Part shown: one piece after another, positions 48,788 to 48,868 of the stretch
Layout of the letters: each line of letters begins with the position of its first letter
Position numbering within the stretch: position 1 is the stretch's first letter
Assembly: GCA_964106645.2 (NCBI GenBank)
Contig: OZ067049.1
Length of the DNA: 64,000 bases
Source: Podarcis pityusensis
Taxonomy: Eukaryota
Reading direction: 5' to 3' (one strand)
Program-made: the position numbers and the translations under genes
The notes under the pieces: model-generated
Databases searched by the model: none
The model's input: only the letters and a program-made list of their open reading frames with translations
Told to the model about the DNA's origin: nothing

Positions 48788-48868
48788 CCAGGACACATTT
48801 TTACCCTTGGGTGTCTTTAGCATGGCAACATGCAGTGCTGAGATGGCCAACAACAGTCCCACCAGCAT
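48788..48868 (-). CDS. Candidate alternative CACNB2 N-terminal coding exon: MLVGLLLAISALHVAMLKTPKGKNVSW
   Basis: ATG at 48868, 27 open codons, consensus donor TGG|GTAAGT (48787-48782), phase 0 matching the common exon. An internal GCCATG lies at codon 16 and an in-frame stop lies upstream (about 48927). The context is non-repetitive. No transcript evidence is available. Confidence 0.45.

Follow-up and report, generated by a model that had tools for sequence, protein, structure and literature searches.

We wondered whether a short open stretch on the minus strand of the Podarcis pityusensis genome, placed upstream of the first shared exon of CACNB2, is a genuine alternative first exon of this gene and, if so, whether it is new. 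The stretch lies in a window of 64,000 nucleotides (the whole piece of DNA that was analysed). The initial annotation had proposed it as a new CACNB2 N-terminus with a hydrophobic, signal- or anchor-like segment. In our reading it forms the coding portion of one of the mutually exclusive first exons of CACNB2, of ancient origin and most likely orthologous to mouse exon 2E (isoform β2i), which would anchor Cavβ2 by an apolar leader. To this reading we assign a probability of roughly 80%.

Read on the minus strand from 48868 to 48788, the segment is MLVGLLLAISALHVAMLKTPKGKNVSW, that is 27 codons without a stop, and GTAAGT follows directly. The ATG, the 27 open codons and the strong donor (TGG/GTAAGT, the slash marking the junction) were thus all found as the initial annotation had described them. 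The shared exon starts at 8844, is preceded by TTTTGTCCAG, a pyrimidine-rich acceptor, and its frame reads GSADS. Both junctions are in phase 0 and the two exons join in frame across an intron that would measure 39,943 nt. The claim that the phase equals that of the β2e exon also proved correct (β2e donor TGT/GTAAGC). Along the minus strand the 27-codon exon (48868) comes first, followed by an exon beginning with MYLY (21328-21296), the β2e exon (9711-9643) and the shared exon (8844). An internal exon entered through the CAG directly 5' of the ATG was considered and rejected, as it would be 88 nt long with a stop in the phase-0 frame. The features are collected in Table 1.

Table 1. Positions of CACNB2 features in the window.
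Feature	Positions	Strand	Remarks
Coding part of alternative first exon, CACNB2 (27 codons)	48788..48868	-	ATG at 48868; probable orthologue of mouse exon 2E / β2i
Splice donor GTAAGT, phase 0 (TGG/GTAAGT)	48782..48787	-	Read from sequence
Hydrophobic leader, residues 1-17, uniformly apolar, not amphipathic	48818..48868	-	Kyte-Doolittle (KD) mean 2.38, hydrophobic moment 0.07, no Cys
Second in-frame ATG (Met16), gccATGc	48821..48823	-	Met in 46/46 named proteins; annotated start in 10
Basic tail KTPKGKNVSW, three Lys	48788..48817	-	K18, K21, K23, N24, V25, S26, W27 invariant in 30/30 named 27-residue forms
First shared CACNB2 exon (GSADS...), acceptor at 8844	8725..8844	-	Pfam PF12052, E 1e-24; named CACNB2 matches at 95-100% identity
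Alternative first exon MYLYDNEDFEG/GTAAGT, acidic, phase 0	21296..21328	-	Similar N-termini on GSADS in 5/88 named proteins (120 listed of 3,707)
First exon that we take to be β2e	9643..9711	-	Identical to named Pogona P0101, score 121/121
Conserved 5' flank, likely 5' UTR or proximal promoter	48869..49001	-	Translation aligns with upstream read-through of named models
GGATTA, 20 nt upstream of ATG	48888..48893	-	Weak evidence

A protein search with the shared exon matched 3,707 proteins; N-termini were taken from the 88 source-named among the 120 listed (32 unnamed rows were excluded), and five of these 88 have the exon's N-terminus on GSADS, namely Pogona, mouse, cat, Pelobates and, as a short form, Hyperolius. 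Residues 1-40 of the Pogona isoform served as the query of a second search, in which 46 of 52 candidates were hits, 44 of them named and two unnamed and excluded. This search gathers only proteins sharing the query's words and cannot show where the exon is absent. All 44 named rows carry the ending VSW/GSADS. Together with mouse and Pelobates, 46 named CACNB2 proteins from 39 taxa (a tally of printed names), ranging from sharks to mammals, were available, most of them predicted 'isoform X' models. Long forms make up 36 of the 46 and come from 29 taxa of sharks, rays, gar, lungfish, amphibians, squamates, birds, marsupials and placentals. An earlier protein search with a 50-residue open frame yielded one unnamed row, which was excluded from all counts.

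The named Pogona isoform was aligned to the window by tblastn with E = 4e-10. Identity to the window peptide is 25/27 in Pogona and goose, 23/27 in lungfish, 22-23/27 in sharks and rays and 21/27 in gar. Besides the tail residues of Table 1, M1, V3, A15 and M16 do not vary among the 30 named forms with a length of exactly 27 residues, and 29 of these also have L2. Substitutions fall mostly at positions 4, 8-11, 19 and 22, position 4 accepting Lys, Glu or Arg, and the 3' half of the exon is more conserved than the 5' half. The mouse record (Mus musculus isoform CRA_d, P0037) has an N-terminus of 28 residues, and 11 of its last 12 are identical to the window. On its own, the 27-mer matched 0 Pfam families, and searches of PDB (best E 0.53) and the ESM Atlas gave no real and no usable match, respectively. 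These data indicate that CACNB2 does possess this alternative first exon and that it is ancient. The additional first exon distinct from β2a-e that had been postulated thus exists, and it is spliced to GSADS in named proteins.

Could the 27 codons nevertheless be a chance ATG-donor pair within an intron? Patterns of an open ATG frame and a donor do arise by chance, with a mean of 0.61 per sequence in 200 Markov shuffles; in the window, three of the seven minus-strand G/GTAAGY donors upstream of 8844 have an ATG-open phase-0 frame of at least 8 codons. The third such stretch (17540-17623, minus strand; 28 codons, a GTAAGY donor and a good Kozak context) has no counterpart among the 88 named N-termini (from 120 listed of 3,707 matches), is probably itself a chance pattern and stands as an unexplained case. 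An ATG-open donor frame with a 15-residue Kyte-Doolittle mean of at least 2.3 occurred in 1 of 200 Markov shuffles, a generous figure because the hydrophobicity threshold was taken from the observed value after the fact. Homology decides over such statistics, and the exon is real because of its match to the named Pogona isoform. Its conservation from sharks to mammals, together with its annotation as a spliced exon, already refutes a chance pair, which retains next to no probability.

We then considered which CACNB2 isoform the exon represents. Among the N-termini of the 88 named proteins (120 listed of 3,707), whose class labels β2a, β2b and β2e are our own assignments, the exon's class is the sole recurring one that is hydrophobic and free of Cys. 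The 27-residue window peptide has a KD mean of +0.93 and a net charge of +3, and the KD means of the β2a, β2b, β2e and MYLY examples range from -0.11 to -1.67. According to the passages on β2i in a 2025 review (PMC11938310), mouse retinal β2i corresponds to exon 2E of Cacnb2 and is credited to Seitter 2023; the primary report, as referenced there, is Seitter et al. 2023 J Biol Chem 299:102972 (PMID 36738788). The same passages describe its N-terminus as hydrophobic-rich, without the cysteines of β2a and without the many positive charges of β2e. The isoform is reported to be membrane-associated and to form clusters, and its inactivation is comparable to that of other membrane-associated variants (PMC11938310). 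Since only one class among the 88 fits and mouse possesses it (P0037), we filed the exon as most likely the β2i orthologue, the match being to the published description and not to the published sequence. The exon could also be real and conserved and still not be β2i, but rather an annotated isoform that is yet to be characterised. In favour of this, the β2i peptide was matched by description only, a primer-based link to a rod transcript failed (see below) and the exon's peptide strings were unmatched in a literature search. The class of the exon, however, has no recurring hydrophobic, Cys-free competitor among the listed named proteins and occurs in mouse, and we regard this explanation as quite improbable. 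None of the peptide strings was found among the matches listed in that search; the primary β2i paper lay outside its scope, so that this is no sign of novelty. Indeed, novelty is the claim that has to be given up: NCBI/UniRef records already carry the exon across the jawed vertebrates, mouse among them, and it fits the description of retinal β2i in the review passages (PMC11938310). Its reality is untouched by this. The exon is therefore not new but present in public annotation, and very probably it has been characterised as Cavβ2i in mouse retina.

How might such a leader act? Cavβ binds the α1 subunit in the cytosol. The initial annotation had counted about 17 apolar residues followed by KTPKGK; the tail stands, whereas the count needs correction, as 14 of the 17 are L, I, V, M or A and the others are G, S and H. 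Cys is absent from all 27 sequences examined, and their net charge is +2 to +4 compared to +6 for β2e. A uniform leader followed by three invariant Lys fits a membrane-inserted N-terminal helix with the remainder of the protein in the cytosol, and, judged from its composition, the leader likely serves as a hydrophobic membrane anchor. The small hydrophobic moment of the window peptide led us to reject an amphipathic helix for it. In an unweighted Hessa-type insertion sum, the window leader scores a slightly favourable -0.75 and the leaders of placental mammals +1.1 to +4.7. The less hydrophobic placental leader argues against a conserved full transmembrane span. Because of the unfavourable sum in placentals and the tolerance of position 4 for Lys, Glu or Arg, a shallow anchor with self-association appears at least as likely as a full membrane span. 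The AlphaFold model from a 15-sequence alignment was uninformative (pLDDT 33), and its helix at residues 2-16 is no evidence.

The segment had been called signal- or anchor-like, and of these two terms the second fits better. The apolar stretch at the N-terminus has about the length of a signal peptide, as would be expected if the leader were cleaved and the β2 product directed to the secretory pathway. By inspection, however, a conserved His occupies position -3 of the likeliest cleavage site (after Ala15), in conflict with the (-3,-1) rule for signal-peptide cleavage sites, and the basic residues come after the apolar stretch, not before it. Moreover, Cavβ does its work in the cytosol, and the review passages report that β2i modulates currents (PMC11938310). 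A cleavable signal peptide is thus very improbable, and an anchor is the more plausible interpretation.

The exon contains a second potential start. The Kozak contexts are cacATGc for Met1 and gccATGc for Met16, of which the latter is better, and Met occupies this position in every one of the 46 named proteins. Ten of them begin here as 12-residue forms (8/8 teleost rows and two frogs); one of the eight teleost rows bears the source label 'beta-4-like'. Directly after Met16, several mammals and a woodpecker have Gln or Pro (P0152-P0155, P0131). A weak context at Met1 combined with a better and invariant Met16 would favour leaky scanning to a second, unanchored product. The suggestion that GCCATG starts a shorter soluble form therefore agrees with the conserved and annotated Met, while solubility of the product is a proposal. 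One may go further and regard the form starting at Met16 (MLKTPKGKNVSW) as the main working product, a soluble or weakly charge-bound β2, with the leader as a minor extension. The invariance and context of Met16, the higher conservation of the 3' half of the exon and the ten models that start at this position are in line with this idea. It does not account for the conservation of the upstream part, since M1 and V3 occur in all and L2 in 29/30 of the named 27-residue forms, nor for a leader that is hydrophobic in 29 taxa and changes its length in whole codons (partly an ascertainment effect). The passages on β2i also describe it as hydrophobic and membrane-associated (PMC11938310), and we consider a predominant short form unlikely.

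Both starts may also be combined in a more speculative scenario, which we judge doubtful. A two-start switch as old as jawed vertebrates would yield a true integral membrane Cavβ2 from Met1, through an N-out signal-anchor helix, and an unanchored form from Met16 of the same mRNA, and would thereby tune ribbon-synapse inactivation at the level of translation. Teleosts would have kept the short form only, and gar, lungfish, sharks and tetrapods both. No Cavβ is known to be a true integral membrane protein. Several small open reading frames lie close to the two starts on the minus strand. An out-of-frame uORF of 47 codons (48817-48960, ATG 48960) overlaps Met1 and stops just past Met16, a 4-codon ORF (ATG 48831) has the same stop, and another upstream ORF, which is in frame (48985-48905), ends before Met1. 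If contained in the transcript, uORFs near the exon could bias start choice. A 'teleost-specific' β2.1 exon 1 is described in the part of Ebert 2008 (PMC2365960) considered here. It may bear on the teleost short form and may equal it or the MYLY exon. A literature search for zebrafish cacnb2a returned nothing on N-termini among the matches listed.

The sequence upstream of the ATG was inspected for signs of a promoter. Translation of this flank (~130 nt) aligned with the read-through of mustelid, pig and woodpecker models with BLOSUM scores of 59, 51 and 37/30, respectively. As 48869..49001 holds stops in the window, it is taken to be non-coding. Three named models run upstream by read-through of the conserved flank and are probably annotation artefacts. 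The GGATTA close to the ATG presumably represents a CRX/OTX2-type core; this motif is not enriched in the window (26 found, 34.65 expected). No notable repeats were found in 47800-50200. A young copia-type LTR retrotransposon (50298-54338, minus strand) with the same sense as CACNB2 ends 1.43 kb upstream of the exon's ATG. Its LTRs (~460 nt each) agree at 100% identity in two blocks that are shifted by ~10 nt against each other, have TG...CA ends and are accompanied by a 5-nt target duplication (CTATA). In its 890-codon frame, matches to copia gag, a zinc knuckle and a pol beta-barrel were found and none to a reverse transcriptase. The 3' LTR of this element could affect the exon's promoter. 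A LINE-like element (39369-42452, minus strand) has matches to RVT_1 (41283-42452) and ALKBH8_N (39369-39908). Between these two matches lies a 151-codon frame (40179-40634) with no Pfam match that gives the impression of an inserted DNA-transposon fragment. A 215-codon open frame on the plus strand (56474-57121), likewise with no Pfam match, is by impression probably a retroelement remnant.

We propose the following course of events. A promoter directly upstream of the exon, probably active in photoreceptors and bipolar cells, would start a transcript that splices over 39.9 kb to GSADS and skips the MYLY and β2e exons. Translation from Met1 would then place 17 apolar residues and three Lys on a cytosolic β subunit. 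The leader helix would enter the membrane and might self-associate, while the Lys would remain at the cytosolic face. Such palmitoylation-free tethering would be expected to slow the voltage-dependent inactivation of Cav1.x in the manner of β2a and β2e, and leaky scanning may add a 12-residue form from Met16 that lacks the anchor. For anatomy, conservation, annotated splice products and hydrophobicity the scheme draws on the present analysis, and for retinal expression, membrane association and inactivation of β2i on the passages of the review (PMC11938310). Use of the exon in Podarcis pityusensis and its retinal expression there are inferred, the latter from mouse.

What the comparison may add is modest: the exon can be traced to cartilaginous fish, the second Met does not vary and the teleost models are without the hydrophobic leader. 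Differences between the orthologues represent natural variants for the study of β2i membrane attachment and clustering, and this attachment bears on Cav1.4 function at photoreceptor ribbon synapses. Residual interest lies in the invariant second start, the apparent loss of the leader in teleosts and the possibility of a truly transmembrane Cavβ.

Finally, we compared the exon with known systems. Its N-terminus is found on GSADS in annotated NCBI/UniRef isoforms of Pogona vitticeps (X9), Anser cygnoides (X6), Xenopus tropicalis (X3), Protopterus annectens (X3), Chiloscyllium (X3) and Mus musculus (CRA_d). The annotated teleost isoforms differ from the window by the absence of the 15-residue leader. 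As to the other first exons, MYLY, which we take to resemble the β3/β4a type, has similar N-termini on GSADS in rattlesnake, newt and three frogs. One literature string search found no description of it among the matches listed, and it may be less well known than the 27-codon exon. Neither a β2a exon (best score 26/89) nor β2b and β2d exons were found in the window; three named peptides of the 17-residue β2b type scored at most 28 (self 87-92), none of them at the 27-codon locus. The idea that the 27-codon exon is a diverged β2b was rejected given these low scores and the separate presence of β2b and the exon's class in mammals and Pleurodeles. Among the 88 named proteins (of 120 listed), a β2b exon is present in newt and mammals; in the lizard it is diverged, lost in the lineage or situated outside the window, none having been found on the minus strand in 8845-64000. 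β2a and β2c/d presumably lie beyond the window end, because very large 5' introns are described in the part of Ebert 2008 (PMC2365960) considered here.

Popova 2017 (PMC5480877), in the portion considered here, describes an intronic, CRX/NRL-bound rod start site of mouse Cacnb2 (chr2:14685286 in the assembly of that paper) that is spliced to the shared exon and resembles the window exon in being a far-upstream intronic first exon. The reverse primer of that study matches the shared exon at 20/24 positions at 8781. In contrast, its rod-specific forward primer could not be placed in the flank of the window exon above chance (best 16-17/23, no better than shuffled primers). Like the window exon, the palmitoylated Cavβ2a has a short first exon on the common acceptor, and its membrane tethering slows inactivation (passages in PMC11938310). 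It relies on a Cys pair, whereas the window peptide is without Cys. Cavβ2e shares the phase-0 first exon and the common acceptor and binds lipid without palmitoylation, but does so with a polybasic N-terminus of 23 residues from a separate exon (net charge +6, KD -0.47), unlike the window peptide (+3, +0.93). The closest counterpart is Cavβ2i, probably represented by the mouse protein P0037 (NCBI): both are alternative Cacnb2 N-terminal exons that are hydrophobic, lack a palmitoylation Cys and are not polybasic. The window leader is more hydrophobic than that of the mouse protein (KD 2.38 compared to 1.98) and has Gly for Lys at position 4.
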